A stretch of 64,000 nucleotides of DNA, from the NCBI GenBank assembly GCA_002685855.1, contig NYYS01000018.1:12859-76858 (forward strand), given 5' to 3'. Under the pieces are notes generated by a model that did no database searches, was not told where the DNA came from, and saw only the letters and a program-made list of their open reading frames with translations. The position numbers and the translations under genes are program-made. The DNA is from Candidatus Woesearchaeota archaeon (GTDB lineage: Archaea > Nanobdellota > Nanobdellia > Woesearchaeales > GCA-2685855). This document shows, one piece after another, positions 1-38,150 of this stretch. The stretch's first letter is position 1, and each line of letters starts with the position of its first letter.

Positions 1-681
1 GTCATCCACCATGACGGATTCATGAACTTCATCCAACGCGTAGCCATCTGGGATGAACAAGAAATCATCGACCTCTCAAAAAAAGTAAAAAACCCCAAAC
101 AAACACTCAACAAATCCAAAACAACCGGCCCGCTGATCGTCGTCGACCCTGTCCAGCCAGACAGAAACGCAGCCGCAGCACTATCCTTGGAAAAATTCAA
201 CCTCCTCAAACAAAGCGCAAAAGAATTCCTTGAAAACCCCTCAGAAAAATTCTTCACCATCCAACCACTCAACCCCGCACAACTCAAAAAAGAAGGCGCA
301 CACATCATCACAATAACACCCCTCGAAGGAAAAAAAGATGTTGTCGGAACAAAAATCATAAAAGTACTCAACCACCTCAGACAAAACCTCGCAGAACGCG
401 GCTTCACAATCACCGACTCAGGATTCGACATGAAACTCATCTACCTCTTTACAGAAGAACACAAAATCCCCCCAACATTCATCCACAAAGGACCCCCTAT
501 TGAACAAAAAAACCGAGCAGACGCCTTCAAAAAAAAATGGGGAAAAACAACCTATGAAAAAGAAGGAATCCTCTACACCAAACGAAAACGCGATTTCATC
601 CACGCAGCCGACTGCATCAAACACCACCTCAAAGACCCCTATGTAAAAGAACGACTCAAAAAATGCTCTCTGAAATCCTAA
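1..681 (+). CDS. 5'-truncated ORF running off window start; C-terminal part of a class I nucleotidyltransferase, possibly archaeal CCA-adding tRNA nucleotidyltransferase
   Basis: Reading frame is open from nt 1 (no stop before ATG at 22). Segment 'PLIVVDPVQPDRNAAAALS' resembles the conserved neck region of archaeal CCA enzymes. A/C-rich native codon usage. Confidence 0.4.
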   Translation, partial: VIHHDGFMNFIQRVAIWDEQEIIDLSKKVKNPKQTLNKSKTTGPLIVVDPVQPDRNAAAALSLEKFNLLKQSAKEFLENPSEKFFTIQPLNPAQLKKEGAHIITITPLEGKKDVVGTKIIKVLNHLRQNLAERGFTITDSGFDMKLIYLFTEEHKIPPTFIHKGPPIEQKNRADAFKKKWGKTTYEKEGILYTKRKRDFIHAADCIKHHLKDPYVKERLKKCSLKS

Positions 682-1163
682 AAACAAACGTCTTAGCAAT
701 CTTCGCACACCCCCTCCTCCAAATAATCATACTCACATTCCTCCCCTTCCTCGAACTCAGAGCAAGCATCCCCCACGGCATCCTCATCGCAAAACAACCC
801 TGGCTCCTCGTCTTCTTCACAGCAGTCATCACAAACATCATTCTAGGCCTGCTGCTCTACCTCGTCCTCGACAAACTCATAGAACTCCTCTGCAAAATCC
901 CCTTCATCAAAAAACTCTACACCGCCTACATCATAAAACTCCAAAAACGCATCCACACAACCGTAGAAAAATACGGAGAATGGGGACTCGCAATCTTCAT
1001 CGGAATTCCCCTCCCCGGCAGCGGCGTCTACTCAGGCGCACTCGGAGCAAAAATCCTCGGATTCACCTGGAAAGACTACACCATCGGCTGCATCCTCGGA
1101 GTCTTCATCGCAGGAATCGCAGTAACAATAATCACATTAGGAGGAAGTGCGATCTTCAGTTAA
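663..1163 (+). CDS. small integral membrane protein, putative small multidrug export family (COG2426-like)
   Basis: 166 aa, four hydrophobic helices with a Gly-rich C-terminal helix. Overlaps upstream stop by 19 nt. Confidence 0.5.
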   Translation: MLSEILKTNVLAIFAHPLLQIIILTFLPFLELRASIPHGILIAKQPWLLVFFTAVITNIILGLLLYLVLDKLIELLCKIPFIKKLYTAYIIKLQKRIHTTVEKYGEWGLAIFIGIPLPGSGVYSGALGAKILGFTWKDYTIGCILGVFIAGIAVTIITLGGSAIFS

Positions 1164-1234
1164 TATTACACCAGAATGTCCTATCTTACTATCGGCAACC
1201 CCATTTTTAGTCCATACCGATACAAAGGTTTATC

Positions 1235-2083
1235 TTAATACAAAACCCGCAACGCCTGCTTCTTCACCGTAACCACAACAGGAGTATGCCCACTAATCTC
1301 TGCATCCCGATGATACAACACCTTCCTCTTAGAACGAATCACAACATGCTTTGCCTTACAAGAAAAAACCCCCTCCATCTTCTGCGGCTTCCGCAACGCA
1401 GCACTCCCCAACCACCGAAACGCCTTAATCAGATTATCCGTCTGCACAACCACCACATCCAACTTCCCATCAGCATAATCAGGATCAGGAGTCAACTTCA
1501 ACACAGACCCATACGTAGGAAGATTCCCAACAACAACAAAATGCCCCTTCACACTCTTCCCATGATCCAAACAAACACTCATCTCCTCAGGCTTATACGC
1601 CTTCAATGTCTCCAACACTGCAAGATAATACGCACCCTCGCCAAACACCTTCTTGAATCGAGAACGCACCTTTGTCAAAGCCGAGGCATCAAAACCAACA
1701 CCAAGAGTCATAAAAAAACGCTTCTTATTCGCATACCCCACATCCATCTTCAAACTTCGCTCCTTGCAAATAGCCTTCGCAGCCTTCACAGCAAAACGGG
1801 AAATACCAAACTCACGCGCCAACACATTCGACGTACCCACAGGAACAATCCCTAACGTCTGCCCCTTCTTCAACCCATTAATAACCTCATTTACCGTCCC
1901 ATCCCCTCCCATCGCAATCACAATCTTCTCAGAACTCCTCCGCGTTTCCCTTGTAGCATCCAACGCCCCTCGCGTAATATACACACTTACCTCAAACCTC
2001 TCCTGCAACGCCTGAATAACCCCAAGAAGATTCGGCTTCAACTGTCCTGCATGAGGATTGTAGATAAGTTTTACCCTTTTCAT
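1235..2083 (-). CDS. diacylglycerol-kinase-family lipid kinase (DAGK_cat, YegS/BmrU-like)
   Basis: 'MKRVKLIYNPHAGQ' N-terminus and 'GGDGTVNEV' catalytic motif. ORF extends to 2128 but Met16 (2083) matches family starts. Stop is TAA. Confidence 0.7.
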   Translation of the reverse strand: MKRVKLIYNPHAGQLKPNLLGVIQALQERFEVSVYITRGALDATRETRRSSEKIVIAMGGDGTVNEVINGLKKGQTLGIVPVGTSNVLAREFGISRFAVKAAKAICKERSLKMDVGYANKKRFFMTLGVGFDASALTKVRSRFKKVFGEGAYYLAVLETLKAYKPEEMSVCLDHGKSVKGHFVVVGNLPTYGSVLKLTPDPDYADGKLDVVVVQTDNLIKAFRWLGSAALRKPQKMEGVFSCKAKHVVIRSKRKVLYHRDAEISGHTPVVVTVKKQALRVLY

Positions 2084-2173
2084 ACCCTTCAAGATAGACA
2101 GACCTATAAATGTTTTTCCACAACACAAAAAAGAAGAAAACTATTTAAAACCCTCCTCTTTTTCCTTTAGCTT

Positions 2174-3172
2174 ATGACCACAAAACCACTCCAAAAAACC
2201 TTTTTAAAAGCAGAATTCAACGACATCCTCGGCCAAAATGCCATAAAAGACGACGTCAAAAGCGCCCTCAGCGCAGGCAGACACATCATCCTCGTAGGCG
2301 CACCCGGAATCGGAAAAACAACCCTTGCAAAAAACATCGCAAAAACACTACCCACACTCGAACTCAACGACTGCGGATACAACTGCCTCCCCGACAAACC
2401 CATCTGCCCAAACTGCACCACAAACAAAAAAACACAAACAAAAAAGAACAACCCCCTCAACAGATTCATCAGAATCCAGGGAAGCCCCGACCTCACAGCC
2501 GAAGACCTCATCGGAGACATCGACCCCATCAAAGCACTCAAATACGGACCCCTCAGCATAGAAGCATTCACCCCAGGAAAAATATTCAAAGCAAATAATG
2601 GTGTTCTCTTCTTCGACGAACTCAACCGCTGCAACGAAAAACTCCAAAACACACTCCTCCAGGTACTCGAAGAAGGAAAAGCAACAATAGGCAGCTACAA
2701 CCTCGACTTCACAGCCGACTTCATCTTTGTAGGAACCATGAACCCCGAAGACTCCTCTACCGAACCACTCTCAGACGTTTTACTAGATCGGTTCGACATG
2801 ATCTACGTCCAATACCCAGAATCCCTTGAAATTGAACAACAAATCGTCCATCAACACGGCCTTAAAGCCATCGACTTCCCAGAAAAAATCCTGGTACGCG
2901 TCCTTACATTCATCAGAAACCTAAGAGCACACCCTGATGTAGAAAAAAAGCCCAGCGTCAGAGCAAGCCTCGGTCTTTACGAACGAGCACAAACCCACGC
3001 AATCCTCCAAGGGAAAAAAATCGTGGAAATGGAAGACGTCCTGGCCGTCCTCGTGTCTGTACTTGCACATAGGATAAGGCTCAAACACTCAGTTAAATAC
3101 CTGAAAAGTCCGGAAAACTTTATCCAGGCCGAGTTTGAGAGCTTTATCGCAGACACGGGAGGGTATCTTTGA
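2174..3172 (+). CDS. MoxR-family AAA+ ATPase with an unusual Cys4 insertion
   Basis: Walker A 'GAPGIGKTT' and Walker B 'LFFDELNR'. Insert 'CGYNCLPDKPICPNC' lies between them. TATA-like 'ctatttaaaa' ~25 nt upstream. Confidence 0.8.
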   Translation: MTTKPLQKTFLKAEFNDILGQNAIKDDVKSALSAGRHIILVGAPGIGKTTLAKNIAKTLPTLELNDCGYNCLPDKPICPNCTTNKKTQTKKNNPLNRFIRIQGSPDLTAEDLIGDIDPIKALKYGPLSIEAFTPGKIFKANNGVLFFDELNRCNEKLQNTLLQVLEEGKATIGSYNLDFTADFIFVGTMNPEDSSTEPLSDVLLDRFDMIYVQYPESLEIEQQIVHQHGLKAIDFPEKILVRVLTFIRNLRAHPDVEKKPSVRASLGLYERAQTHAILQGKKIVEMEDVLAVLVSVLAHRIRLKHSVKYLKSPENFIQAEFESFIADTGGYL

Positions 3173-4370
3173 CAGACAACCCGATACTGAAACCGAAACA
3201 GACGTTTCTATACAAAAAAAAGAAGCAATAGAAGAACTCACAGGCAATCTCGCCAAACAAAAAGACAAAGACGCCCTCATGAATTCTGTTCTTGAAAACG
3301 ACGAAGAATCAATCCAAGAAGGCAAAGTAATCTCAGACAGCATAAGCCAAGGCGTCGGCAGCTTCACACCCGACATCATGTTCGAAAAACTCGTCACTAA
3401 CTTCAAAGAAGCAAAAAAACTCTACGGAAAAACAATAATAAGAGAACTCTCAGGATACGACCCGAATTACATTGATAAAAACAGAAACATCCCCGAATTC
3501 AAACGACAACTCAAATCAGACATCGAAAACAACATAAAAAAATACCAGGAAAAAAAACTCATCGACGACGACTACATTGTCACAAATAAAGGACTCTTTC
3601 TCAGCAGCCTCGTTCTCTACATCGAAGAACTCGACAAACTCATCACAAGAGGGCAGGGAGAAAAAGAAATCAAAGAAAAACACGTCTACGGAGAAAAAGG
3701 CCCCATTATCCCCTTCAAAAAAGGACGCTATCGCGACATCGCCCTTCGTCCCAGCATCAAACTCGCCATCAGAAGAAACCACAAACAACTCCACCCATCC
3801 GACCTCAAATCACACGAACGACACAGAACAGGAAAGATCAACATCATCTACGCAGTCGACAGCAGCGGAAGCATGAAGGGAGAAAAACTCAAAGTCAGCA
3901 AAAAAGCAGGAATCGCACTCGCATTCAAAGCCATAGAAGAAAAAAACAAAGTCGGCCTCATCGTCTTTGAAAAAGAAGTAAGATACACCCTTCCACCCTC
4001 AAACAACTTCATTGAAATCATACAAGAACTTGCACGCGTCAGAGCAGGAAGCGAAACCGACTTCTCCAAAGTCCTTCATAAAAGCAGAGAACTCTTCCCC
4101 CAAACAAAAGAAACAAAACACCTCATATTCATCACAGACGCACTCCCAACAGCAGGAAAAGACCCCATCCAGGAAACACTCAAAGCAACCTCACAAGCAA
4201 GAGCAGCCGGAATCACTGTATCCATTATCGGAATCAAACTCGAAGAAGATGGACTCGCCCTCGCCCAAAAAATAACAGACATCGGAGCAGGACGCCTCCT
4301 CATCTGCAAAAACCTCGACGACCTAGACGCACTCGTACTCGAAGACTACACCTTAACAATGTCAGAATAA
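3135..4370 (+). CDS. von Willebrand factor A (VWA) domain protein, MoxR partner
   Basis: MIDAS motif 'AVDSSGSM' in C-terminal domain. Overlaps MoxR stop. Long K/E-rich N-terminal linker. Confidence 0.7.
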   Translation: MRALSQTREGIFDRQPDTETETDVSIQKKEAIEELTGNLAKQKDKDALMNSVLENDEESIQEGKVISDSISQGVGSFTPDIMFEKLVTNFKEAKKLYGKTIIRELSGYDPNYIDKNRNIPEFKRQLKSDIENNIKKYQEKKLIDDDYIVTNKGLFLSSLVLYIEELDKLITRGQGEKEIKEKHVYGEKGPIIPFKKGRYRDIALRPSIKLAIRRNHKQLHPSDLKSHERHRTGKINIIYAVDSSGSMKGEKLKVSKKAGIALAFKAIEEKNKVGLIVFEKEVRYTLPPSNNFIEIIQELARVRAGSETDFSKVLHKSRELFPQTKETKHLIFITDALPTAGKDPIQETLKATSQARAAGITVSIIGIKLEEDGLALAQKITDIGAGRLLICKNLDDLDALVLEDYTLTMSE

Positions 4371-5341
4371 AGAGGCAAAAAATGAACCTTATACACACTA
4401 TACAGATCCAGCTCCTCAGAATCCTTGATAATCGCCTCAAACTTCTCACGAAGATTCAACTCAATCTCCCGAAATATTGAACTATCCTTCATCTCACAAT
4501 CCAACTCAACATCCCAACTACCCAACGTTCGAACCATCCGAATAATATTTGGATGCTCCTTTGCAAACTGAAACAAACTCTGCTCCTTCTCAAAATCAGG
4601 ATTATGAAACGAAAGCAACAGCTTCCTCTGCGTCAACCCTGTCTTCTCCATATTCACAACAGGCTTCACCCCAAACAGGATCTCCTCCTTATGCAACCGC
4701 TTCAACCGAGAAACAACAGTCTTAGGATGTAACCCAAGGTTCCTTCCCAAAAACACAGAACTCGCCCGCGGATTCCTGTTTAACTCCTGCAACAAACCAA
4801 GATCCTTCAAATCATACACACCCTTTTCCCGATCACCACCAATAATAACTGTTTGTGACTCAGCACCTGTACGCTTTCTCAAAAGATGCTTCCGCGTATG
4901 AATCGACTGATAGATTGTCGTTAAAATCTGATAACTCTTAATCCTATCAGAAAACTGCTTCAACGCAGCATTAAACGTCTTGTTAAACTGAGATGGATTC
5001 CGACTAAAAAACCCCACAAGAAGATCCCACCTCCCTCCACAACTTGCAACATAGTTAACCTCATCCAACTTCACAAAATAGTCGACAATCTCCTTCAACT
5101 GCGTCTTATTCACATACACAATCTTCAAATACACCCGAAAATTCAACATCCCCAATCGCGCATAATCAATAACAGGAAAAAACCCCTGAACCTTCCCCGA
5201 ACCCAACATCTGCTGAAAATAATAATTCGCCAACTGTTGTGAAATCCGAAGCCGTTTCGCCATAAAAGAGATACTCCCCCGCGCATTCCGATCTAGCTGA
5301 ACAAGAAGCTTCACTTCAACCTTACTAAGATTATTCTTCAT
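4346..5341 (-). CDS. transcriptional regulator with two tandem Lrp/AsnC-like (HTH + RAM) modules
   Basis: Two repeats of HTH segment ('SISFMAKRLRISQQ' and 'SSVFLGRNLGLHPKTVVSRLKRL'), each followed by a RAM-like domain. Confidence 0.55.
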   Translation of the reverse strand: MKNNLSKVEVKLLVQLDRNARGSISFMAKRLRISQQLANYYFQQMLGSGKVQGFFPVIDYARLGMLNFRVYLKIVYVNKTQLKEIVDYFVKLDEVNYVASCGGRWDLLVGFFSRNPSQFNKTFNAALKQFSDRIKSYQILTTIYQSIHTRKHLLRKRTGAESQTVIIGGDREKGVYDLKDLGLLQELNRNPRASSVFLGRNLGLHPKTVVSRLKRLHKEEILFGVKPVVNMEKTGLTQRKLLLSFHNPDFEKEQSLFQFAKEHPNIIRMVRTLGSWDVELDCEMKDSSIFREIELNLREKFEAIIKDSEELDLYSVYKVHFLPLYSDIVKV

Positions 5342-5428
5342 TACTTTGTAAAAAAGTATATATTATTTTTAAAACTTGTCCTTTTTACTAAAAAAATACG
5401 CGTCCTCCCTTAAATACTCCCTCCTCCC

Positions 5429-5438
5429 TTTATAATAG
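5429..5438 (+). promoter_or_regulatory. archaeal TATA box (TTTATAATAG), ~30 nt upstream of the aspartate racemase ATG; leaderless-type promoter
   Basis: Sequence 'ccctTTATAATAGag' sits ~27-36 nt upstream of the ATG at 5465. Confidence 0.45.
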
Positions 5439-5464
5439 AGATAAAAAAGGTGTGGTGTCAGAAC

Positions 5465-6181
5465 ATGATAATAGGAATACTCGGCGGATTAGGACCAGAA
5501 GCAACCAAAGACCTCTATGAAAAAATAATCCAGACTACACCCGCCAAATGCGACCAGGACCACATCGAAATCATCATCTACAACAACCCAAAAATCCCCG
5601 ACCGAACACAAGCCATCCTCTACAACGGAGAAAACCCCCTCCCCCAACTCATCCACACAGCAAAAACCCTCGAAAAAGCCGGAGCAGAACTCATCGTCAT
5701 CCCCTGCAATACTGCACACTACTTCCTCGACAAACTCCAGCCTCGCACCCCTGTCCCCATCCTCAACATGATAGAAGAAACAGCAGCCTTTATCCACCAC
5801 AACTACCCCGACACAAAAAAAGTAGGCATCCTCGCAACCACCGGCACAATCAAAACCAACCTCTACCAGAAGACACTCCAAAACACAGGAATCATGCCCA
5901 TCACCCCGTCCACCTATGAACAGGAATCACTGATCATGGAAGCAATCTACGGAACACAAGGAATAAAAAGAGGAAAGAAAACCCAGCCCAGAAAACTCCT
6001 CCTTAAAGCAGCACAATCACTCACCCAGCAAGGAGCACAACTCATCATCCTCGGATGCACAGAGATCCCCCTCGCACTCAGACAAAAAGAGATCAGCTCA
6101 GTCCTCATCAATCCCGCAAACATCCTCGCAGAAAAAATCATTACACTAACACAAACAAAAAAACAAAAGGTGATAATCTAA
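5465..6181 (+). CDS. aspartate/glutamate racemase family (aspartate racemase)
   Basis: 'IGILGGLGPEAT', 'VIPCNTAHYF' and 'ILGCTEIPL' are two-Cys racemase signatures. Track ORF starts at a GTG (5450); the ATG at 5465 is more likely. Confidence 0.75.
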   Translation: MIIGILGGLGPEATKDLYEKIIQTTPAKCDQDHIEIIIYNNPKIPDRTQAILYNGENPLPQLIHTAKTLEKAGAELIVIPCNTAHYFLDKLQPRTPVPILNMIEETAAFIHHNYPDTKKVGILATTGTIKTNLYQKTLQNTGIMPITPSTYEQESLIMEAIYGTQGIKRGKKTQPRKLLLKAAQSLTQQGAQLIILGCTEIPLALRQKEISSVLINPANILAEKIITLTQTKKQKVII

Positions 6182-6182
6182 A

Positions 6183-7106
6183 ATGAAAGTTGCAATACTA
6201 CATCAGGATTTAGAATGGGGTGAAAGAGAAATCGCAAGACAATTACAACAAAAAGGTTTTACAGTCAACCTATTCGATGTGCGAACCACTTCCCTGGAAG
6301 ATCTTACACAAACAGAGGAACTCCCCTCCCTCGTCCTTAACAGAGTATATGCATCAGTAGCCAACAGAGACTACAGAGATAATATTAAAATATTAGACCT
6401 ATTACTATCCTTGGAACGTCTGGGAATACCTTGTATGAATTCGTACTATACCTCCCAGTTCGATTACAGCAAGTTCAAAGCAGCAAAAAGACTCAAAGAA
6501 GAAGGAGTCTCAACTCCAGAAACACTCTATGTAGGATGTTTGAATACTGAAACAAAAGATCGCATAACAGGATTTATAAAAAAATATGGCTTTCCTCTCA
6601 TAGTAAAAAGAGATATGGGTGGAAGAGGAAAAGATTTACAAAGAATTGAAAATGAACAATCTTTGTATACATTTTTAGAAAATAAATTTTCTCCAACAGC
6701 TCAGCATGAATATGCAGGCGGATTTGTAGTCCAGGAATTTTTAAAGCCCACAAGGCCATTTGATTGCAGACTAGCTGTTTTTGACGGAGAATTTGCATTT
6801 TCCTATGGCAGAACACTCATTTCCAGAGTAAATAACGGTGACGCGCCTTGGTTAGCAAGTGTAAAACTAGGTTCAAGAATGATCAATTACGATCCTACCC
6901 CCGAAGAAGTAGCTCTAGCTATTTCAGCCTCAAATGCAATTGGGGCTATTTTTAATGAAGTAGATATGACTCAAACAGAAAAAGGACCTGCTATTATAGA
7001 GAACAATCCCACACCAAACTACGACGAAACTGAAATAGATCGTGTAGCAAAAGCTGTAGATCTAATCGAAAAAACCTATTGTACTACAGAGGCAATCCTA
7101 AGATGA
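6183..7106 (+). CDS. RimK-type ATP-grasp ligase (alpha-L-glutamate / amino-acid ligase family)
   Basis: ATP-grasp fold motifs ('IVKRDMGGRGKD', 'VVQEFL...DCRLAVFDGE'). Abrupt shift to balanced base composition exactly at the start codon. Confidence 0.6.
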   Translation: MKVAILHQDLEWGEREIARQLQQKGFTVNLFDVRTTSLEDLTQTEELPSLVLNRVYASVANRDYRDNIKILDLLLSLERLGIPCMNSYYTSQFDYSKFKAAKRLKEEGVSTPETLYVGCLNTETKDRITGFIKKYGFPLIVKRDMGGRGKDLQRIENEQSLYTFLENKFSPTAQHEYAGGFVVQEFLKPTRPFDCRLAVFDGEFAFSYGRTLISRVNNGDAPWLASVKLGSRMINYDPTPEEVALAISASNAIGAIFNEVDMTQTEKGPAIIENNPTPNYDETEIDRVAKAVDLIEKTYCTTEAILR

Positions 7107-8032
7107 AAGGTGTTGTAAGTGTAAATTCTGATTTCCCTGCATATCTGGACGGAAGAGAAGAACTGGAATATTTTTCAACCAAAACACTCCTGTCTCGTTT
7201 TGTAACACGCGGAGACACAGTAGCAATCGTACATCCTGAAGATATTCAGAATCAGGAAAAGAAGGTGACCTTTAAAAAACTCTTTACCTTTCATCCACCC
7301 AATAGATTAGAGGAGGCAGATCCTTCGTCATTTCAGCAAGGAAATTTCTTTCTTGTACGACAATTCGGAGAAAACCTAGAGTCTGAAAAATTCGTACACC
7401 GATTTATCACCGCACTTTCCTGCCTGGAAAACCAGTTTTACTTAGTAATGAACACTGCATCTGCAACAAAGTACGAACTGAAAAATATCCAGAAAACATT
7501 AGACATACCTTTTATTCCAGCGTTTGACATAAACACCCCTGCAGATTTAGAATCAGTGGTGGCTTCTGGCGAAAAAATTATTGCAAAACCATTTACAGGA
7601 TTTATGGGAAGAGGTATAGAGTTTTTCGATTCAGTTGAAAGCGTATATCGCGTCTTTAACAACGGAAGAACACCTCAAGGATACTGCTTCGAAAGATATA
7701 TTCCTGCAACCATGGAAACAAGAATAGTTTTCATTGACGGATCAATCCCCTTTGCCAGACCACGAATGGTTGAAGGACCACCCGGAAAAGAAAAAGCAGC
7801 AGGATACTCTCTTACCCAGCCCACATCCAACCAACGTACAATAACACAGCAGGTCATAGAACAAACAGGAATGCAATTCGGTTCAGTTGACTTCAGAGGA
7901 GAATTCGTGCTAGAGATAAACGGCTCAGGTCTCGGCTTGGTTCCTCCGGCAAAGGTAAAGAACTACGATCAAATCCAACCCTACGATCTAACAAACGACC
8001 TAATCGACCTCATCAAAAGAAAAAGTCAGTAA
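7103..8032 (+). CDS. second ATP-grasp-like protein
   Basis: 'IAKPFTGFMGRGIEF' and 'YCFERYIP...ETRIVFIDG' resemble ATP-grasp B/C-domain motifs. ATGA start/stop overlap with the RimK-like gene. Confidence 0.45.
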   Translation: MKGVVSVNSDFPAYLDGREELEYFSTKTLLSRFVTRGDTVAIVHPEDIQNQEKKVTFKKLFTFHPPNRLEEADPSSFQQGNFFLVRQFGENLESEKFVHRFITALSCLENQFYLVMNTASATKYELKNIQKTLDIPFIPAFDINTPADLESVVASGEKIIAKPFTGFMGRGIEFFDSVESVYRVFNNGRTPQGYCFERYIPATMETRIVFIDGSIPFARPRMVEGPPGKEKAAGYSLTQPTSNQRTITQQVIEQTGMQFGSVDFRGEFVLEINGSGLGLVPPAKVKNYDQIQPYDLTNDLIDLIKRKSQ

Positions 8033-8033
8033 A

Positions 8034-8903
8034 ATGTCAAAAGAAAAGATCCAACTTATCGCACCATCACACCACATCTACCCAAAACACATAACAAACG
8101 CAATCTTTTCTTCAAAAAAACTCGGATACGATCTGAAATATTCTCCTTCTATTCACCAAAGAACTCTTTCCTTTGCCGGCTCACCTGAACGCAGAGCCAA
8201 CGAAATTCACCAAGCATTCAAAGATCCTGCGGTCATACTCATCTTGGCGGCCTGCGGTGGAAACGGATGTATAGAAATTTTACCTCATCTAGACTATAAA
8301 CTTATTAAAAAAAACCCAAAGCCAATAATTGGCTTCAGCGACATCTCTATACTATTAAATACTATAAATCAAAGATGCGGCCACATCATGATTCATGGTC
8401 CATCCCAAAAACACTCCTGGAAACATCTTAGTAAAGATGAACAAAAATCAATCATCAACTGCATTCACAAAAAATCATTCAAACAAACCTTTGAAAAAAA
8501 AGATATTCTTTTCCCCTCAACAAAAATCATTAAAGGAAAAACCTCTGGTGGATGTTTATCCCTTCTTGTCGATTCATTAGCAACACCTTACGAAATAAAA
8601 ACTAAGAACTCAATCCTTTTTTTGGAAGATGTGGATATAAAAGGAAGAAGACTTTACACTCTTCTCGTTCAATTAAAACTAGCAGGTAAGTTCCAAAAAG
8701 TAAAAGCAATCGTTCTTGGAAATTTTAAAAACTGTCTTCATGCCAAGCCCTATCTAACAAACTTTTTTAAGAATCTTACCCTTCCAACAGTTCATACCAG
8801 CCTATTTGGTCATGGAAAACTAAACCACGCCTTTCCCATAGGTGCACAGGCCGAGATCAATTTTGATAAAAAAGAGATTAGATATCACTTTAAAGCGCGG
8901 TAA
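8034..8903 (+). CDS. LD-carboxypeptidase (peptidase S66, MccF/LdcA family)
   Basis: 'IIGFSDISILL' nucleophile-Ser motif with family-typical length and layout. One base after the upstream stop. Confidence 0.6.
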   Translation: MSKEKIQLIAPSHHIYPKHITNAIFSSKKLGYDLKYSPSIHQRTLSFAGSPERRANEIHQAFKDPAVILILAACGGNGCIEILPHLDYKLIKKNPKPIIGFSDISILLNTINQRCGHIMIHGPSQKHSWKHLSKDEQKSIINCIHKKSFKQTFEKKDILFPSTKIIKGKTSGGCLSLLVDSLATPYEIKTKNSILFLEDVDIKGRRLYTLLVQLKLAGKFQKVKAIVLGNFKNCLHAKPYLTNFFKNLTLPTVHTSLFGHGKLNHAFPIGAQAEINFDKKEIRYHFKAR

Positions 8904-8957
8904 GGCCTTTCCGAACTTTTAAGTAACACATATAAACCATTTCTCCCCCCCACCTCC

Positions 8958-9542
8958 ATGAAAATCCTCGCATTCACAGACCTCCACGCCAGCAGAACCC
9001 ACCTCAAAGCCATCTACAAAAAAGCCGACAAGGCCGACATCATCGTCTGCTGCGGAGACTTCTCAGTATTCGAATCAGAAGCAGAACGCATCCTTGCCAT
9101 GTTAGGAAAGCTGAAAAAACCCGTCCTCATCATCCACGGAAACCATGAATCCGAAGAATACACAAAAAAAGTCGCAGAACAAAACAACCTCACCTTCCTC
9201 CACAAAGCATTCTTTGAACAGGACGGCTACGTCTTTGCAGGCTTTGGAGGCGGAGGATTCTCCATACAAGACCCTGAATTCGAACAATTCGGCCACACCA
9301 TCCAGCTCTACCCTAAAAAAAAGAAACTCATCCTCATCAGCCACGGCCCCCCAAAAGGCTGCAATCAGGACCTCATCGACAAAGACCACGTCGGCTGTAA
9401 ATCCCGAAGAGACATCATCAAAAAACTCAAACCTGACCTTGTCCTCTTCGGCCACATCCACGAAACATTCCACGTCCACGACAGATGGGATTCAACACTC
9501 CTGATCAACCCCGGCCCCGACGGAGAACTCATAGAACTCTAG
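8958..9542 (+). CDS. calcineurin-like metallophosphoesterase
   Basis: 'ILAFTDLH', 'IIVCCGDF' and 'IIHGNHES' metal-binding motifs. Native C/A-rich composition resumes. Confidence 0.7.
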   Translation: MKILAFTDLHASRTHLKAIYKKADKADIIVCCGDFSVFESEAERILAMLGKLKKPVLIIHGNHESEEYTKKVAEQNNLTFLHKAFFEQDGYVFAGFGGGGFSIQDPEFEQFGHTIQLYPKKKKLILISHGPPKGCNQDLIDKDHVGCKSRRDIIKKLKPDLVLFGHIHETFHVHDRWDSTLLINPGPDGELIEL

Positions 9543-10606
9543 CGATACATTTATATACATCCGCCCCTAGAATTCAGAATGAATATGGGAAGGGGAGTCT
9601 ATATACACTACTGTGTATACTTATTCTAACAACATCATCAATAGCCATATCTGTCGACGACATTGTAAAAATCGGCGAAAAATATGAAACAGGAGCCCTC
9701 ACATTTGCCCAACTCCGCATCGAAGGCAGTCTTCTCAGAGAACAACTCCAGGAAGAACTCGGAGAAGGATTCGAAGTCACCTACAAAGACCTTGGCCGAG
9801 GAAAAGATAGAGAAAGGGCCAAAGAAGGAGGACAAGGCCAAGGTGAAGGAGACAGCACAGGAAAAGGAGGAGACGAATTTGGTGATGAACCCGAAGAACC
9901 CGAAGGAGGATTAACAGGCGCTCTAAGTTGGCTAACAGGATTAGTAACAGGGGAAGAGGATCATGAAGGTGATGACAACCGTGATGATGATCGTGATGGT
10001 GATCATGGTGATGATAGAGACAAAGATGACAGGGATAAAGATAGTAGAGACAAAGACCATGAAGGCGACAAAGATAAAGATGATCAAGACTATGAAGACT
10101 TCGAAGAACATCGCTGCACACCCGAAACATGCAACCAACCCAACCAATTCTGTGATGAAGAAAAAGGATGGTGCGAATGCGAAAAAGGCTGATATGAATG
10201 TGATGGAGACTGGGATAACGGATGTGAAGCAGAAGAAGAATGCTATGGCTGCGAATCTGACGATGACTGTGCACAATCACGCTGCTCAGAGTGGGGAAAC
10301 ACCCTCATCACATTTGGCTGCATCACAGAGGAAGAATGGGAACACGAATCAGGTGCCATCGCCTTTGTAGGCGGATGCAACGAACACCCCACAGGAAAAA
10401 CAGACAGCTACATCCACTTCGAGGTCTGGGGAGAACAGTTCGATGAAATAAATAAACTCCGCGACTTCAAAGGAGAATTCCAGGACGACTGGTGCACCTA
10501 TGATCTTGAACAAGCACTCATCCAGAGAGAAGAATTCGAAAAATCACTTAACGACGAATTCCTCCAATGGTACAGCTCAAAAGTAAAAAAGAACACCATA
10601 AGCTAA
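9485..10606 (+). pseudogene. acidic low-complexity, Cys-rich secreted-type protein whose frame continues 138 codons past an in-frame TGA (10190-10192); pseudogene or recoding candidate
   Basis: Frame stays open from the TGA to TAA at 10604-10606, with no in-frame ATG/GTG/TTG in the downstream part. The Cys-rich pattern continues across the stop ('CECEKG*YECDGDWDNGCEAEEECYGCESDDDC'). Real start uncertain because the annotated ATG overlaps the upstream gene by 58 nt. Confidence 0.4.
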
Positions 10607-14014: not shown

Positions 14015-14061
14015 AAACAGAGAAATCAGAAGTTCTTTTTAAAGCTACTGGGGGGGAACGG

Positions 14062-14271
14062 TTAATTCAATAAGGGATTCTGATGATAGATTCTTGTTAC
14101 ACGATGAATCCTCATTAACTCATCATAGGTGTGCTTTCGAATTATATAATCTGTAAAACCTTTCAAAAGGAAATCGACTGCAGCTTTTTCCTTAGATCGA
14201 GGCTTCTCAGCTTTTTCAGCCAAATAACTCTCTGGATCTGCCATAATGTCAACAACATCACGAACATCCAT
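14062..14271 (-). CDS. small hypothetical protein (69 aa) in the AT-rich island
   Basis: ORF only. A 48-codon Cys-rich ORF (MKKEQTKKICCSEMAAQLKHQCDLHKNIFDCPDNIVC) lies just upstream at ~14322-14465. Confidence 0.25.
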   Translation of the reverse strand: MDVRDVVDIMADPESYLAEKAEKPRSKEKAAVDFLLKGFTDYIIRKHTYDELMRIHRVTRIYHQNPLLN

Positions 14272-14468
14272 AGATCTGTCAACAAACTCACGTTCCGGCC
14301 GCTCCTCAAAATGATCTCCTAATCCTGCCTGATCCCAAACATATCTCCTTTAAAACAAACAATGTTGTCAGGACAATCAAATATGTTTTTATGGAGATCA
14401 CACTGATGTTTAAGCTGAGCAGCCATCTCTGAACAGCAAATCTTTTTTGTTTGTTCTTTTTTCATTTT

Positions 14469-14876
14469 TTATCCAATAACCCAAACTACATCTCTAATAA
14501 AGTAGAACCATTTCTTACCTTCAAAAAGATCTTCTTTAAACAAAGGTATATGTTTGTACTCTTCGTATTCTAGTTCTTCTTCAGTGCATCCCATTAAATC
14601 GTAATAGTTATTAATAGATAAATTAACACCCTTAAGAGCGTCTTTAAATTTAAAAGGTTCGACGGTTTTCGCCTCCATAAATGTCTTATCGTAAAAGTCT
14701 TTAAAATCGTCGATAGCCACAACCACCTGCGAATCTTTGAAATGCTTATTAAACACCCAGATTTTTAGATAATACTCTTCTCTGAATGAATCAAGTTTCT
14801 TCTTCCAGCTCAAATAAATATCTACAAGCTTCTTTTTCCAGCTGATTTCCATCCAATATGCGGATTTATAGGGCAT
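14469..14876 (-). CDS. hypothetical protein (135 aa); candidate immunity/accessory gene downstream of the RHS-RNase toxin
   Basis: AT-rich, Lys/Glu-rich, same strand and tightly spaced after the toxin and the 343-aa ORF. No detectable barstar-like motif. Confidence 0.4.
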   Translation of the reverse strand: MPYKSAYWMEISWKKKLVDIYLSWKKKLDSFREEYYLKIWVFNKHFKDSQVVVAIDDFKDFYDKTFMEAKTVEPFKFKDALKGVNLSINNYYDLMGCTEEELEYEEYKHIPLFKEDLFEGKKWFYFIRDVVWVIG

Positions 14877-14953
14877 TTTTCTTCAGGAAGAATGTGGCCG
14901 TAGTCAATATGAACTCGAGCACTTGCCTGTACACCATGACCTCTAGATTCTTT

Positions 14954-15985
14954 TCACTTCTTTAAGTTCTCCTTGTGTTCAAGATATTTTAAAAGTTCAA
15001 CCTCTTTTTTTGTTATTTTTTCAATATTTTTTTGTACAATCTTGCTTTCGGCAAATTCTTTTAATGTTGTTTTTAAAAAAACTTTATCGCGAGCTCTGAC
15101 AGAAAATCCTTTTTTTAGTAAGAGTATTGAACAAAGTTTGTTTTTTAAATTGTTCGCTTCTTTAAAAACGTGTTTTGATTTTAAATCCTTGTTTCCATTC
15201 ATGTTTGAGTCTTTTTTCAATAGGCTTATGGATCCTCCTTTAATTGATTTTAACTCCGAATAAATATTGATTAATTCATCGTCGGGAACTTTGAAATATT
15301 TCCGCGGATGTTCCTTCATTTTTTTTGTTAAATATCCTTCTTTTGCATTTTTCCTGAAATAAAAACTCAAATATGTTTCTCCATCAACGTAGTGTTTTTT
15401 TACCAATTGTAGGAGTTGTAATAGCTTTTTGGTTTTTTTTCTTTTATAAGGAATTAAAATTTCATTATGGATCGTGTGTTGCGAATATAATTTTTGTCGA
15501 AGATGTCTTTTCAAAGTTTCATTAATAAATAATTTGTTTTGTGTATTAATTATTTTTGTGAGATCTTTTTTCAGAGGAGTACAGTCATCTAAAAAAACCA
15601 AGATAAAAGCACATTTTCCATCAATCTTGCTGCACAAAACTCCTTTTACTAGGCAATTAATAAATGCGAGATAATTTTCTTTCCCTAATACATCATAAAA
15701 TTTTTTTAGAGAATTAATAAAAATTAATCTTTCTTGCTTTTTCATCCATGTTGGATATGCAATCATATCAAAAAAAACATACCATCTGTAACTAAAGTCT
15801 TTTCTTTTATATTTTGTTTTTCTAACATATAGATCTATAAGATCCTTTAAAGATTTTTCTTTATCACTTTCAAACACAATTTTTTTGTAACCTTTAAACA
15901 GTACTGAAATTTTTTTAAAATCATCTCTATTATTAATGAAATAAAATGTGCTATTTAATTTATAATCCTCAAGTAGCTTTTCCAT
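14954..15985 (-). CDS. Lys-rich hypothetical protein (343 aa) immediately downstream of the toxin gene
   Basis: Starts 19 nt after the toxin stop. Strongly AT-rich codon usage unlike native genes. No known motif. Confidence 0.5.
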   Translation of the reverse strand: MEKLLEDYKLNSTFYFINNRDDFKKISVLFKGYKKIVFESDKEKSLKDLIDLYVRKTKYKRKDFSYRWYVFFDMIAYPTWMKKQERLIFINSLKKFYDVLGKENYLAFINCLVKGVLCSKIDGKCAFILVFLDDCTPLKKDLTKIINTQNKLFINETLKRHLRQKLYSQHTIHNEILIPYKRKKTKKLLQLLQLVKKHYVDGETYLSFYFRKNAKEGYLTKKMKEHPRKYFKVPDDELINIYSELKSIKGGSISLLKKDSNMNGNKDLKSKHVFKEANNLKNKLCSILLLKKGFSVRARDKVFLKTTLKEFAESKIVQKNIEKITKKEVELLKYLEHKENLKK

Positions 15986-16003
15986 TTTTATCCCTCTTTT
16001 TTA

Positions 16004-17215
16004 TCATTCAAGTATTATTCTTTTAACTGTTTTTTCATTATGATGATTTTTGTTCCAATACCAATCACCTTCTTTTGACAAATAGAATCTTTGTCCTGTA
16101 TCCTTTCCCGAGTTGTCGAATACCCTAAACTCTGAGTAAAAATCAGGATCTGAATTATAAGGTAAAGGACCTCCCTTTTTTGATGTATCAGTAAAGGTAT
16201 TATCAAAGCGTTTACTACCTATTAATTCTTTTCCTTCTTTGTAGTTTTCTTCTAAAATATTAAGTTGGTCACTAACACGTGGTGGAAGATTTGATTGTTT
16301 AATGGGATTTATCTTATTTCCGATCATCCCGAACTGGCTCCCATCATCAGCAATTCTGGCACTACTTGCTTCATCCGTACGCTTAAAAAAATCACCAGCT
16401 GCTTCTAAGGCCTCATCGCTATATTCTATTGCTTCATCAGCCAATGCGGCGGCCTCATCAGCATACCTCGCCTTATTCGCAATAGAACCAGGAAGAATGG
16501 CTGTAAGCAGCCAAAACGCGTTCTCAGCAGAAGGCTCTTTAGCAAAAGAATATACATCCCAAGCATCAGAAGCAACCTCCAACAAACCCAAAGCCACAGC
16601 AACAACCGCCCAATTCCCTGTCGGATCAACATACTTCACAGGATTATTTCTTACATAGCTGTACCTGTTCAGCTGTTGTGGGTCGTAGGGATCTGGTAGC
16701 AGGGGATCTGGGGATACGAAGATTCCTGTTTTTGGGTTGTAGTGGCGTGCTTCATAGTACATTAATCCTGAACTGTCTTGTTCTTTTCCTGTGAAGCCGT
16801 AGCGTTCTTCTCCTCCTGTTAATACTGATCCGAAGGGAAGATGTTCTGTTTCTTCTACAACTTCTCCTTCTGCATCCGTAACCACCTGTGGGCTTCCCAG
16901 ATGATCTGTATGAATGTAAAACATTCCGGAATCGTTCTTTTTTGCGACCAAACCTGTTGAATCCCGATAATAGATCATTTCCTCTACTGTTCCATCAGGA
17001 AGAACAACCTTAACATAATCATCAACATAATAGGTAGTAGTATTTGTTCCATCCTTATGGAACTCAATCTTTCTCACCCTCGTACCTGTATGATCATACG
17101 TGTTCTTAACAGTTAATCTATCCCCATCCTCCTCATCATAGCTAAAAGCAGAGGTAAAACTCGTTATGATGAGAAATACTAAGAACAGCGATATGATTCT
17201 ATTTGGCTTCATCAA
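16004..17215 (-). CDS. secreted mini-RHS polymorphic toxin: signal peptide + YD/RHS repeat-associated core + C-terminal barnase-like (N1/T1/Sa family) ribonuclease domain
   Basis: Signal peptide 'MMKPNRIISLFLVFLIITSFTSA'. RHS core 'FYIHTDHLGSPQVVTD...PFGS...YGFTGKEQD...YYEARHYNPKTGIFVSPDP...DPTGNW'. C-terminus 'RFDNTF...GGPLP...YSEFRVFDNSGKDTGQRFYLSKEGDWYWNKNHH' aligns with barnase catalytic Glu/Arg/His. Confidence 0.75.
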   Translation of the reverse strand: MMKPNRIISLFLVFLIITSFTSAFSYDEEDGDRLTVKNTYDHTGTRVRKIEFHKDGTNTTTYYVDDYVKVVLPDGTVEEMIYYRDSTGLVAKKNDSGMFYIHTDHLGSPQVVTDAEGEVVEETEHLPFGSVLTGGEERYGFTGKEQDSSGLMYYEARHYNPKTGIFVSPDPLLPDPYDPQQLNRYSYVRNNPVKYVDPTGNWAVVAVALGLLEVASDAWDVYSFAKEPSAENAFWLLTAILPGSIANKARYADEAAALADEAIEYSDEALEAAGDFFKRTDEASSARIADDGSQFGMIGNKINPIKQSNLPPRVSDQLNILEENYKEGKELIGSKRFDNTFTDTSKKGGPLPYNSDPDFYSEFRVFDNSGKDTGQRFYLSKEGDWYWNKNHHNEKTVKRIILE

Positions 17216-17244
17216 GATCCCCCCTTCACAAAAGGATGTTTCTT

Positions 17245-17259
17245 GAAATATTTAAATAT
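17245..17259. promoter_or_regulatory. 15-bp palindromic site GAAATATTTAAATAT, copy 1 of 2 in the divergent toxin promoter region
   Basis: Identical 15-mer recurs at 17351-17365, ~106 bp away. The core ATATTTAAATAT is self-complementary. Confidence 0.45.
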
Positions 17260-17350
17260 TCTTCCTGGAATTCCGGATATTTTCCGAAGAGAAGGTACAC
17301 ATATTCCTTGTTTACTTTATAAACGGTTTAATGAATCTTCTTTAAGAAGG

Positions 17351-17365
17351 GAAATATTTAAATAT
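17351..17365. promoter_or_regulatory. 15-bp palindromic site GAAATATTTAAATAT, copy 2
   Basis: Exact repeat of the 17245-17259 site, upstream of the 17410 (+) Cys-rich gene. Confidence 0.45.
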
Positions 17366-17409
17366 CTCTGTTCTCAAAATAGCTTATGTTACGTAGGGGT
17401 TAGCTAGTA

Positions 17410-17793
17410 GTGATACTGCTAGGGTTAGTCTCTGGTGTGGGGGCTATGACGTTCAGTGAAGCCTGTGATAGTGGTGTGGAAAGGGCTTGTAGCTATCTTG
17501 AAGTATGTGGTTTTTCTGATTGCGGACCTGATGGATGTATTCCAAAGGAGAAAGAAGCTGTACAAATAGAACCAGTAACAAAACTCCCAAAGAAGATCTT
17601 TGACTATTCTGCTCCAATAAGATGCACCCAGTTCAATGATTGGGTAACTACAGATGTCTCACATACCTTATGTGACAAATACCCCACAAGCTGTGTCCGC
17701 AAAAGCGATCCCAACTACCACTTCGACCAATACTGTACTAAAGAAGGACTTATTCAGCCCATACACCTTCAAAAAGGAGGAATAAATGAATAA
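17410..17793 (+). CDS. small Cys-rich secreted protein
   Basis: N-terminal hydrophobic segment and 10 Cys in 127 aa. Balanced composition (island). Confidence 0.4.
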   Translation: MILLGLVSGVGAMTFSEACDSGVERACSYLEVCGFSDCGPDGCIPKEKEAVQIEPVTKLPKKIFDYSAPIRCTQFNDWVTTDVSHTLCDKYPTSCVRKSDPNYHFDQYCTKEGLIQPIHLQKGGINE

Positions 17794-18436
17794 GCCAACC
17801 CTCATCCTACATTTCCTCTTTTTCACACTTCTCCTACTACCCATAACCTCAGCAGAAACCTGCGTACAAATCATGGGCGTAGAACACTGCTGCGGAGTTG
17901 ACGATGGCGTATGTCCCATGGACTACGAAGATTCATACGGAGTACGAGTCGGATGCGGAGGAGACCCCGACCCGGATTGTTGTGGAGGACAGAATACGAG
18001 ATGGAGAGAATGCGAGAGAGATATTGAGAAGCCAGATGAAAGTGGAATATTCACCTATAATACATGTGTAACATCAACCTATGATTCAGCATGCTGTGAT
18101 CAGCCAACAGATTGCGTCTATGATGGAAACTGTTACGACACAAGTTCAGCTGCAATAGAACTCTATCCCAATGATGGACGAGAGCAATGTTCAGAAGGAC
18201 AATGGTGTCCGGAAGGGTTTAAATATGATCCTGTGCGTTTATTTTGTAAAAAAGCTCAACAAACATGTCATCCTAATCCTCCAGGTGCTTGTAGATATTT
18301 GCCTTTTACAAAGGAGTGGTATGAAACTCCCTCTTGTTTCTTGCCTCAATCGCCGGTCCATGAACAAACATGCTGTTTCGATTTCAGTCTTGGAGGTCAG
18401 GATTTTTACAATTTTAAAAGAGTGAGAATCGAGTAA
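17786..18436 (+). CDS. Cys-rich secreted protein (216 aa)
   Basis: Signal peptide 'LILHFLFFTLLLLPITSA'. More than 25 Cys including CC/CxxC clusters. Overlaps upstream ORF by 8 nt. Confidence 0.5.
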   Translation: MNKPTLILHFLFFTLLLLPITSAETCVQIMGVEHCCGVDDGVCPMDYEDSYGVRVGCGGDPDPDCCGGQNTRWRECERDIEKPDESGIFTYNTCVTSTYDSACCDQPTDCVYDGNCYDTSSAAIELYPNDGREQCSEGQWCPEGFKYDPVRLFCKKAQQTCHPNPPGACRYLPFTKEWYETPSCFLPQSPVHEQTCCFDFSLGGQDFYNFKRVRIE

Positions 18437-18440
18437 AAAT

Positions 18441-19775: not shown

Positions 19776-20005
19776 ACTCTTTGGAATAGGCTTAAATTAT
19801 AAAAACATTTGTGAGAACAGGATTAATAGCTATATAGTCATTAAATCATTCATCTAAAATGACCTCATAAAAATTTTGTTCTTTATATGCAGGAAAACCT
19901 GTTTTTCTCGCTTGAATAACAGTGTCATCCTTGTTTTCTATAAACTGACTAATACTTGCCTGAAACAGAGAGATCGGATGCATCGATGTAATTTCTGCCT
20001 CTTTT

Positions 20006-20536
20006 TTATACTCTGTGAAGTCGGTCTTTTTGTCTGTTAATTTCTTTTTGTAATTCTATGAAGTTCTGTATTCTATAAGTGAAATATCCCATAATCGTAT
20101 CTTTTTTAGCAAAATGTCCGTATTCATGTGCGATTATGGCAAGTAAATCTTTTTCATTTAACATTTGAAGCGTAGCCAATCCGATTATGATTTTTTCCCT
20201 GAATAATCCACTTACAGCAATTTCACTACCTTCTGAAAGAATAATTTTATGCGGTTTTTTCTGTCCTGTTTTCTTGATAATCTTGTTTATAATTCCAGTC
20301 AGTTTTTTGGCGTCCTTTTGTTTTAATTTCATTTCATATCCTTTATCTGATTTTCTAAAAATTCCCAACCAAATACCAACTAAAATTGGCCAACAAAATA
20401 CGATAAACATAAAGTTGTATATATAAATAATTAAACCAATCGCAATGAGAAAGCAAACAATCATGCCAAAACCGAATATTAACATAAAAAAGGAGTATAT
20501 TATTTCAAACCTGTCCGAATTAATCTTAACTTCCAT
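20006..20536 (-). CDS. membrane-anchored HExxH zinc-metalloprotease-like protein, probably truncated (M48/M56-like N-terminal part)
   Basis: Two TM helices then 'IIAHEYGHFAKKD'. ORF ends ~30 aa after the motif, so it lacks the usual third metal ligand region. Confidence 0.4.
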   Translation of the reverse strand: MEVKINSDRFEIIYSFFMLIFGFGMIVCFLIAIGLIIYIYNFMFIVFCWPILVGIWLGIFRKSDKGYEMKLKQKDAKKLTGIINKIIKKTGQKKPHKIILSEGSEIAVSGLFREKIIIGLATLQMLNEKDLLAIIAHEYGHFAKKDTIMGYFTYRIQNFIELQKEINRQKDRLHRV

Positions 20537-20876
20537 TATTTAAATAATATATAACTATTCATTTATTAATATTTTCAAAAAAGGGGCGTGTCTATATATA
20601 TGTTCTCTTTGTGACGTAAACTTTTTTAAAGAAAGAATCCACTTTATCCTTTGGGCTATATGGTTTACTATACGGGATTTATTGAAAATTAAACACATTC
20701 CTTAAGAATTTTCTTAACATTAATCCTTGTTGTAGATGATTCTTCTTCTTTTTGGTCAAAGCGTATTGCAGAGATTAAGTAGTCCTCCATTCTCACTTGA
20801 TCTCCCTGTTTGATTATTTGTAGAACGCTAACAAATTCAACTTATTTAATAATGTCAAAATTATTATACTCATCCC

Positions 20877-38043: not shown

Positions 38044-38150
38044 CTCTAATTAAAAGAGTATAAATACCTTTCGAAAACAACATTTAAGCACCTACCGCAC
38101 CAAAAACTTTATAATATCCTCTATCTAAAACACACAATCGAGGTGAAAAT

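Follow-up and report, generated by a model that had tools for sequence, protein, structure and literature searches.

A racemase, ligase and peptidase operon conserved among DPANN archaea and the proposed late arrival of its three downstream genes in a marine Woesearchaeota genome

Several described enzyme systems resemble parts of a four-gene segment located at positions 5465–8903 of a 64,000-nucleotide (nt) stretch of DNA, hereafter the window, from a marine Candidatus Woesearchaeota metagenome-assembled genome (MAG; Tara). The segment encodes an aspartate racemase, two ATP-grasp ligases, designated g1 (NCBI tag CMO92_01360) and g2, and an S66 peptidase; the sequence is also present in Tara-derived records. 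The Racfm-Aslfm pair of Enterococcus faecium reportedly consists of an aspartate racemase and an ATP-grasp D-aspartate ligase acting on the peptidoglycan cross-bridge. Among the ATP-grasp ligases, RimK acts on the tail of ribosomal protein S6, and LysX and ArgX act on LysW. The characterised S66 enzymes LdcA and MccF have small peptides or aminoacyl-nucleotides as substrates.

The gene arrangement resembles that of Racfm-Aslfm in that an aspartate racemase gene lies directly beside an ATP-grasp ligase that would use D-aspartate (D-Asp). However, the acceptor of the enterococcal pair is a murein precursor, whereas none of the DPANN loci examined showed genes of murein synthesis, and the DPANN operons, unlike Racfm-Aslfm, encode a carboxypeptidase together with two to four ligases. 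A tripeptide would arise from two consecutive ATP-dependent ligations, as in the synthesis of glutathione by GshA and GshB, although the first ligase here is RimK-like and coupled to an aspartate racemase instead of being a gamma-Glu-Cys ligase. The encoding of a product hydrolase beside the synthetases follows the logic of the glutathionylspermidine synthetase/amidase system; the hydrolase of this operon is an S66 serine peptidase, and glutathionylspermidine amidase is of the CHAP type. The operon is a variant of known ATP-grasp peptide-ligase systems and is itself uncharacterised in DPANN archaea. A literature search found no description of it, although an earlier mention in the amidoligase survey of Iyer et al. 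2009 is possible.

A four-gene operon conserved among DPANN archaea

Positions 5465–8903 form one four-gene operon, of a type conserved across DPANN archaea. The genes are as follows:

5465–6181, + strand: aspartate racemase, first gene of the operon (Pfam Asp_Glu_race, 1.4e-47), with fully skewed native composition
6183–7106, + strand: g1, RimK/LysX/ArgX-like ATP-grasp amide ligase (Pfam RimK, 5.3e-13), first of the three genes proposed to have arrived late
7103–8032, + strand: g2, glutathione-synthetase-like ATP-grasp amide ligase (GshB profile and fold match)
8034–8903, + strand: S66 serine peptidase, closest to LdcA (Pfam Peptidase_S66, 1.8e-32; S66C, 3.3e-25), last of the three genes proposed to have arrived late

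The first-pass annotation of the window had described these genes as tightly coupled, with an ATGA overlap and 1-nt spacing, and this is read directly from the junctions. The racemase stop codon TAA (6179–6181) is followed by one base and the g1 start ATG at 6183, the g1 and g2 genes overlap in ATGA at 7103–7106, and the g2 stop codon TAA (8030–8032) is again followed by one base and the ATG of the S66 gene at 8034. The GGTGAT ribosome-binding site of g1 is located inside the last racemase codons, and the gap of 1 nt leaves no space for a second promoter between racemase and g1.

The operon was compared across 35 non-redundant archaeal-type loci, including the window, gathered from genome-context look-ups and by scanning the GTDB species representatives. 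The loci belong to Woesearchaeota, Pacearchaeota, Aenigmatarchaeota and unclassified archaea; some that bear the label Patescibacteria or Methanosarcinales nevertheless carry archaeal markers. At least two tandem ligases are present in 32 of the 35 loci, and three ligases in 14. A racemase gene is located directly upstream of g1 in 23 loci, usually with a 4-nt overlap. An S66 peptidase is encoded in 16 loci, a divergent AsnC-type regulator lies upstream in nine and a C39-like peptidase (DUF3335) occurs in four. The exact order racemase-g1-g2-S66 was found in loci L004, L006 and L050 and in one JGI contig. The racemase is no chance neighbour of the ligases: it stands directly before g1 in most loci, and racemase-g1-g2-S66 recurs as a unit. 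The enzyme set had been called unexpected in an archaeon without murein, but among DPANN archaea (Woesearchaeota, Pacearchaeota, Aenigmatarchaeota) such a set is typical, while the bacterial homologues of g1 are more distant and, in six bacterial loci, solitary with no shared context.

The composition of the operon varies between lineages. Some loci contain an inserted glutathionylspermidine-synthase-like or ATP-grasp_3 ligase, and some have a DcsG-like enzyme as their second ligase. In the variant at locus L049 (4917–7796), a gene of the GCS2 family (gamma-glutamyl-cysteine-ligase type) is followed by a g2-like ligase and an S66 peptidase, and genes for a metallophosphoesterase and TYW1 adjoin the operon, as in the window. 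A conserved small open reading frame (ORF) that could encode a precursor peptide was found upstream in none of 28 loci. No conserved carrier, target or substrate-naming neighbour was found beside the operons either, the shared neighbourhood being limited to lineage-specific synteny (Elp3-like radical SAM protein, GTPase, ribosomal proteins, FtsZ).

The enzyme identities proposed in the first-pass annotation were upheld by domain, profile and fold matches. The racemase scores 233 bits against TIGR00035 (cut-off 93) and matches the P. horikoshii aspartate racemase 1jfl with 6e-62; both catalytic Cys motifs (PCNTAH and GCTE) align with those of 1jfl. The same protein scores 252 bits against the NCBIfam cysteate-racemase equivalog NF052483 (cut-off 190), the racemase of L004 (5198–6004) scores 211 bits, and a Caldicellulosiruptor homologue is labelled "cysteate racemase" by the Prokaryotic Genome Annotation Pipeline. 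Judging from the match to the cysteate model, the substrate could be another acidic amino acid, or the model may over-reach.

Ligase g1 scores 49 bits against the Pfam RimK domain (cut-off 21). Its AlphaFold2 model (predicted local distance difference test, pLDDT, 91.5) finds LysX, ArgX and RimK as the best solved folds, with template modelling (TM) scores of 0.70–0.76, and these ligases are its best matches in both sequence and fold. Residues K142, D261, E273 and N275 are among the invariants of the g1 family. The protein differs from RimK, LysX and ArgX by a family-specific NRVYASVANR motif and by the absence of an S6- or LysW-type acceptor nearby. It also remains below the curated cut-offs of all named families (score/cut-off in bits: rimK_fam 87/143, RimK 24/331, LysX 66/276, MptN 68/350, CofF 24/300). 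In locus L047 (7962–9260), according to our own ORF calls, a g1-like ligase is fused to an RNase H/RVT_3-like domain.

Ligase g2 belongs to a small, fast-evolving family. As a single sequence, it gave a weak Pfam match (GSH-S_ATP, 0.004) and no relative in the PDB. A word-index search returned only two proteins, whereas an exhaustive search over 1.84 billion representatives found 57 relatives. A profile built from 39 members of the family matched E. coli GshB (1gsa) over the full length with 9e-12, and the AlphaFold2 model (pLDDT 94.2) has 1gsa as its best fold (TM 0.71). Residues K127, K162, E205, R207, D263, E271 and N273 of g2 align with K125, K160, D208, R210, D273, E281 and N283 of GshB, which are ATP/Mg-binding residues. 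With 24.5 bits, g2 is far below the 272-bit cut-off of the glutathione synthase equivalog.

The S66 peptidase matches both S66 domains with 112 and 89 bits. The match to P. aeruginosa LdcA (PA5198, 1zrs) covers the full length (1.3e-20), while the match to MccF is weaker (~1e-17) and concentrated towards the N-terminus, being best over residues 47–126. The motifs GFSD, LEDV and GHG align with the Ser-Glu-His triad of PA5198, and the triad, shared with LdcA and MccF, is intact. The enzyme differs from LdcA in scoring 105 bits against a cut-off of 378 for the muramoyltetrapeptide carboxypeptidase equivalog and in belonging to an organism without evident murein. In L039 (10845–12641) and L041 (10842–12638), our own ORF calls show an S66 peptidase fused to a DUF1861 domain.

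Composition and origin of the g1-g2-S66 segment

The native genes of the window carry an extreme strand bias. At fourfold-degenerate sites, the + strand of these genes contains approximately 42% A, 50% C, 3% G and 6% T, and the fourfold G+T fraction (+ strand) is 0.02–0.21 in either gene orientation. In the native parts of the window, C accounts for about 33–35% and G for about 12%. The strongly biased genes are housekeeping genes (pyruvate dehydrogenase E1-beta and E2, ThyX, thymidylate kinase, CCA-adding enzyme, NMD3). A whole-chromosome strand disparity, with 29.8% C and 15.0% G, was described for the candidate phyla radiation (CPR) order UBA1400 (Kadnikov et al. 2020, PMC7143001). In both cases, one strand is C-rich and G-poor whatever the gene orientation; however, UBA1400 are bacteria without A>T skew, whereas the host studied here is an archaeon with strong A>T skew, and the strand bias was not applied in that paper to detecting recent gene acquisition. 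No report of a comparable strand bias in archaea was found in a literature search.

The following features flank the operon genes:

4346–5341, − strand: tandem Lrp/AsnC-type regulator (Pfam HTH_AsnC-type, 1.4e-09, and AsnC_trans_reg), of native composition, divergent from the operon
5429–5437, + strand: putative TATA-like box TTTATAATA, read from the sequence, ~30 nt before the racemase ATG
8887–8924, no strand assigned: palindrome over the S66 stop codon, then CTTTT; inverted repeat with 23-nt arms, 83% complementary
8958–9542, + strand: YfcE-like metallophosphoesterase (Pfam Metallophos, 2.9e-20), of native composition

A free two-breakpoint search over 2174–9542 placed the breaks at 6167 and 8945 with a log-likelihood gain of 49.8 nats, and the likelihood drops within ~30 nt either side of these positions. 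The breaks correspond to the end of the racemase gene and the spacer after the S66 gene, and enclose exactly three genes (6183–8903); the right border lies just after the palindrome. The abrupt composition switch at 6183, with the native pattern back at 8958, which the first-pass annotation had pointed out, is thereby confirmed, and its borders are found at gene ends. The fourfold G+T fraction on the + strand is 0.07 in the racemase, 0.28 in g1, 0.31 in g2, 0.39 in the S66 gene, 0.09 in the metallophosphoesterase and 0.14 in the AsnC regulator. The G+C content at third codon positions (GC3) is 0.26–0.35 in the island vs. ~0.5 in native genes. In plain GC skew, the S66 gene (−0.27) is nearer to the host than g1 (−0.01) and g2 (−0.07), but at fourfold sites it is as deviant as both ligases. 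The junctions are 99.98–100% identical in three further public contigs from other assemblies (L001, L002 and L003), which rules out an assembly chimera.

Each protein was also compared with orthologues from unbiased genomes by means of an index that contrasts amino acids with A/C-rich codons and those with G/T-rich codons. The resulting z values are +3.1 for the racemase (+ strand), −2.4 for the AsnC regulator (− strand), −0.1 for g1, +0.7 for g2 and +1.8 for the S66 peptidase. The shifts of racemase and regulator have opposite signs, as expected from long-acting strand-specific mutation pressure on genes of opposite strands; g1 and g2 match their orthologues, and the S66 peptidase is intermediate. 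Since the proteins of the flanks are shifted and g1 and g2 are not, the difference in composition reflects residence time and not codon selection, and codon adaptation or high expression, which had been named as an alternative, is rejected. The bias of the racemase and both flanks and its weakness in g1-g2-S66 indicate that these three genes entered the chromosome later. At fourfold sites, the island has 0.23–0.33 T and 0.19–0.23 C, the host 0.06 T and 0.50 C, and orthologous operons in unbiased DPANN genomes 0.35–0.55 T and 0.02–0.15 C. If the donor resembled these unbiased relatives, the island would have drifted roughly one third of the way toward the host composition.

All nearest relatives of g1, g2 and the S66 peptidase belong to DPANN archaea, with best identities of 54%, 43% and 53%, respectively. 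The nearest neighbour of g1 is L004 (bootstrap 85/100). The S66 peptidase was nearest to L008 in the first tree set (92/100), and the later-added L049 is closer (53%); the closest relatives of both g2 and the S66 peptidase are in L049. The AsnC regulator is nearest to L013 (95/100) and the racemase to L013 (47) or L029 (29), L013 containing AsnC, racemase, g1 and then gyrB. The racemases of Thermococcus (54% identity) and Caldanaerobacter (56%) are about as near as the best matches (56–60%), and those of the L004 and L006 operons show 49–50%; hence, the lineage of the racemase cannot be told. The differing nearest neighbours (L013 for AsnC and racemase, L004 for g1, L008 or L049 for S66) may be taken as suggestive, the distances being saturated. 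The idea that the three proteins would group with vertically inherited archaeal homologues, considered in the first-pass annotation, holds as regards the archaeal lineage but is not supported as regards vertical descent.

With moderate confidence, we propose that g1, g2 and the S66 gene came later, most likely from another DPANN archaeon, replacing or extending the downstream part of a resident operon, and that the four-gene set makes a short peptide. The relatives have the regulator, the racemase and a neighbourhood with metallophosphoesterase and TYW1 in common with the window, which argues for replacement within a pre-existing operon and not for a new insertion. A metallophosphoesterase homologue adjoins the operon in L027, L030 and L049. 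The other low-bias patches of the window also consist of accessory genes, encoding RHS and Por_Secre_tail proteins, beta-helix proteins and orphans.

Several observations weigh against this proposal. The donor search found no relative above 54% identity, and the partial amelioration estimated above rests on an assumed donor composition. The phylogenetic sign of a separate origin is weak: racemase and g1 distances, both saturated, correlate poorly (r 0.31), the racemase family is too conserved to place, and the g1 distance between the window and L004 is only 2.5 standard deviations shorter than expected. Marks of mobility are absent: there is no integrase or flanking direct repeat, and the window contains no tRNA genes. 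The operon of archaeon SMBSF31 (L024) is somewhat less biased at fourfold sites (0.66–0.77) than its neighbours, and its proteins are shifted; the shift implies that the operon is resident there, which makes the comparison a caveat and not support, and some gene-specific effect on operon composition may exist. As for the product, an adjacent racemase is missing in 12 of the 35 loci, so a D-residue may not be obligatory, and RimK, LysX and ArgX, the nearest solved relatives of g1, modify protein C-termini and not free peptides.

Vertical inheritance in place, with the weak bias caused by codon selection, high expression or locally different mutation or repair, would agree with the L024 operon and with a neighbourhood like that of related lineages, where AsnC lies upstream and the metallophosphoesterase and TYW1 are close by. 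It would also agree with the similar identities to L049 within the segment (S66 53%, g2 41%) and outside it (TYW1 48%, metallophosphoesterase 41%). We nevertheless consider it unlikely. The switch occurs inside a single transcription unit, within ~30 nt of a gene junction of 1 nt, while the co-transcribed racemase is fully biased, and GC3 differs as well; codon selection cannot explain why the amino acids of the flanks are shifted and those of g1 and g2 are not, and plainly accessory genes elsewhere in the window show the same relaxed signature. The strong form of the first-pass reading, a bacterial murein-related cassette whose insertion beside an unrelated native racemase was fortuitous, is largely refuted and, in our estimation, very improbable. 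It is true that bacterial cell-wall metabolism provides the best-known S66 peptidases and ATP-grasp ligases, that the composition of the island is unlike that of the host and that a bacterial-type Por_Secre_tail domain is encoded in another low-bias patch. However, the archaeal affinity of g1, g2 and S66 contradicts a murein-type import from bacteria: their nearest relatives are all DPANN, and the bacterial g1 homologues are distant and solitary. Moreover, the racemase is an integral, translationally coupled operon member elsewhere, and the S66 peptidase falls short of the muramoyltetrapeptide carboxypeptidase cut-off (105 vs. 378 bits).

Further traces of transfer were searched for without result: no relatives of the segment were found on viral contigs, and no match to an Rfam family was obtained. 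The strong strand bias exposes recently acquired DNA gene by gene, at both the synonymous and the amino-acid level, and thus allows gene flow to be traced with unusual clarity in a lineage that has not been cultivated.

Proposed product of the operon

Judging from the enzyme families encoded, the operon probably builds a short D-aspartate-containing peptide independently of the ribosome. The racemase would supply D-aspartate, and g1, translationally coupled to it, would link D-aspartate and a second amino acid via an acyl-phosphate intermediate. The second ligase, g2, would then extend the carboxyl end of the dipeptide, as GshB adds glycine to gamma-Glu-Cys. The LdcA-like S66 peptidase would cut the terminal bond beside the D-residue, which could serve product turnover, trimming or control of the product level. 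Both the substrates and this order of reactions are proposed by us. The scheme "racemise, ligate, ligate, trim" of the first-pass annotation is still the most economical reading of the enzyme set. No link between the operon and murein was found.

Similarity to glutathione synthesis extends beyond the GshB fold and the aligned ATP/Mg-binding residues of g2, in that the closest g2-S66 pair elsewhere, that of L049, sits behind a GCS2 (GshA-type) ligase. This variant points to a glutathione-like small peptide as the possible product. The GCS2-g2-S66 variant, the small-molecule type of the extra ligases and the lack of a conserved carrier or precursor gene make a small-molecule product more likely than a protein tail.

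The opposite possibility, that the ligases add amino acids, possibly D-aspartate, to the C-terminal tail of a protein, with the S66 and C39-like peptidases as erasers, is in our view rather unlikely but a live rival. The best folds of g1 (LysX, ArgX and RimK) are all modifiers of protein C-termini, a papain-like C39-family peptidase (DUF3335) is present in some operons and the operon of one lineage lies between ribosomal protein genes and ftsZ. On the other hand, no conserved carrier or target gene or small ORF exists in or beside the operon, g2 and the additional ligases look like enzymes acting on small molecules (GshB, glutathionylspermidine synthase, DcsG, GCS2 partner) and the known S66 enzymes act on small peptides or aminoacyl-nucleotides. 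An assignment to the graspetides, ribosomally synthesised and post-translationally modified peptides in which two ATP-grasp enzymes would cross-link a precursor, can scarcely be upheld. Two ATP-grasp ligases are indeed adjacent, and the fold matches include, at lower ranks, PsnB and microviridin-type ligases. However, the macrocyclase folds reach TM 0.5–0.6 vs. 0.7 for GshB, RimK and LysX, a conserved small ORF is found neither upstream of nor inside the operons, and the coupling to a racemase has no role in graspetide chemistry.

A broader version of the small-peptide proposal, which we regard as possible and put forward tentatively, is a modular DPANN cascade. It would begin with a racemase and a RimK-like ligase or with a GCS2 ligase, continue with one to three GshB-like ligases and include S66 or C39-like hydrolases; the product would be a novel D-Asp oligopeptide, glutathione- or murein-stem-like, and the operon would be exchanged among lineages. 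Such a product would be, e.g., a small metabolite with a protective role or a building block of the envelope. In that case, the strand bias of the host would act as a built-in clock dating each acquisition.

The genomes of DPANN archaea are very small and have few biosynthetic pathways, yet an operon of two to four ATP-consuming ligases, a racemase and peptidases is kept in them and was, in this host, seemingly re-acquired. This suggests that the product matters to DPANN archaea. A D-aspartate peptide, if confirmed, would represent a new class of archaeal metabolite and one of the few defined roles of D-aspartate in archaea. Since all four enzymes are small, soluble proteins, the pathway is directly accessible in vitro.

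Regulation, neighbouring regions and related loci

The divergent AsnC regulator is probably an amino-acid-responsive controller of the operon. Based on its position and sequence, the box TTTATAATA is a putative operon promoter, and the palindrome at 8887–8924 may possibly mark the operon end.

The composition of the whole window (1–64000) is strand-specific and independent of gene orientation, with a strong A>T skew and a polarity that is constant over 64 kb; GC3 skew read on the + strand is about −0.8 to −0.95 in native genes. The bias seems to mislead gene calling. In L001 (1–10000, equal to about 1–6200 of the window), the stored gene calls lack the + strand racemase and contain many short − strand ORFs instead, and genes for a MoxR ATPase and a VWA protein are apparently omitted as well. 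The racemase is called in NCBI's own annotation, unlike in the stored L001 calls.

An equally extreme bias of opposite sign, in the given locus orientation, was observed in archaeon SMBSF31 (L024, 1–16828), where native genes have a fourfold G+T fraction of 0.88–0.95. In L019, the raw GC skew is +0.35 over the locus, and the fourfold sites are only mildly G+T-rich (0.50–0.60).

A second, larger island without strand bias is located at 14015–20876 of the window, with fourfold G+T of 0.28–0.59 and GC content down to 0.24. Besides orphan ORFs, it encodes an M48/M56-like peptidase, an RHS fragment and a protein that carries a Por_Secre_tail sorting domain of bacterial type; it looks more recently acquired than the ligase island. 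Relaxed bias was also found in three single genes (37330–38353, 42746–44152 and 46177–47793): two encode surface proteins of the beta-helix/NosD type, one of them with a Golvesin_C domain, and the other is an orphan ORF. All three are probably late acquisitions too. The gene at 9485–10192 encodes a protein with a long acidic Asp/Lys/Arg repeat tail, the amino-acid bias of which locally masks the strand skew. An ORF of 2750 residues at 48453–56705 has native composition.

The MAGs of L010 and L018, and possibly those of L028 and L044, are labelled "Patescibacteria group bacterium" and carry the archaeal operon; L010 also encodes a threonyl-tRNA synthetase with an archaea-specific editing domain. 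These labels are probably wrong, and so, probably, are several "Methanosarcinales" labels, since the genomes that bear them look like DPANN. In L013 (5989–9171), an intein-containing gyrase B gene directly follows racemase-g1.

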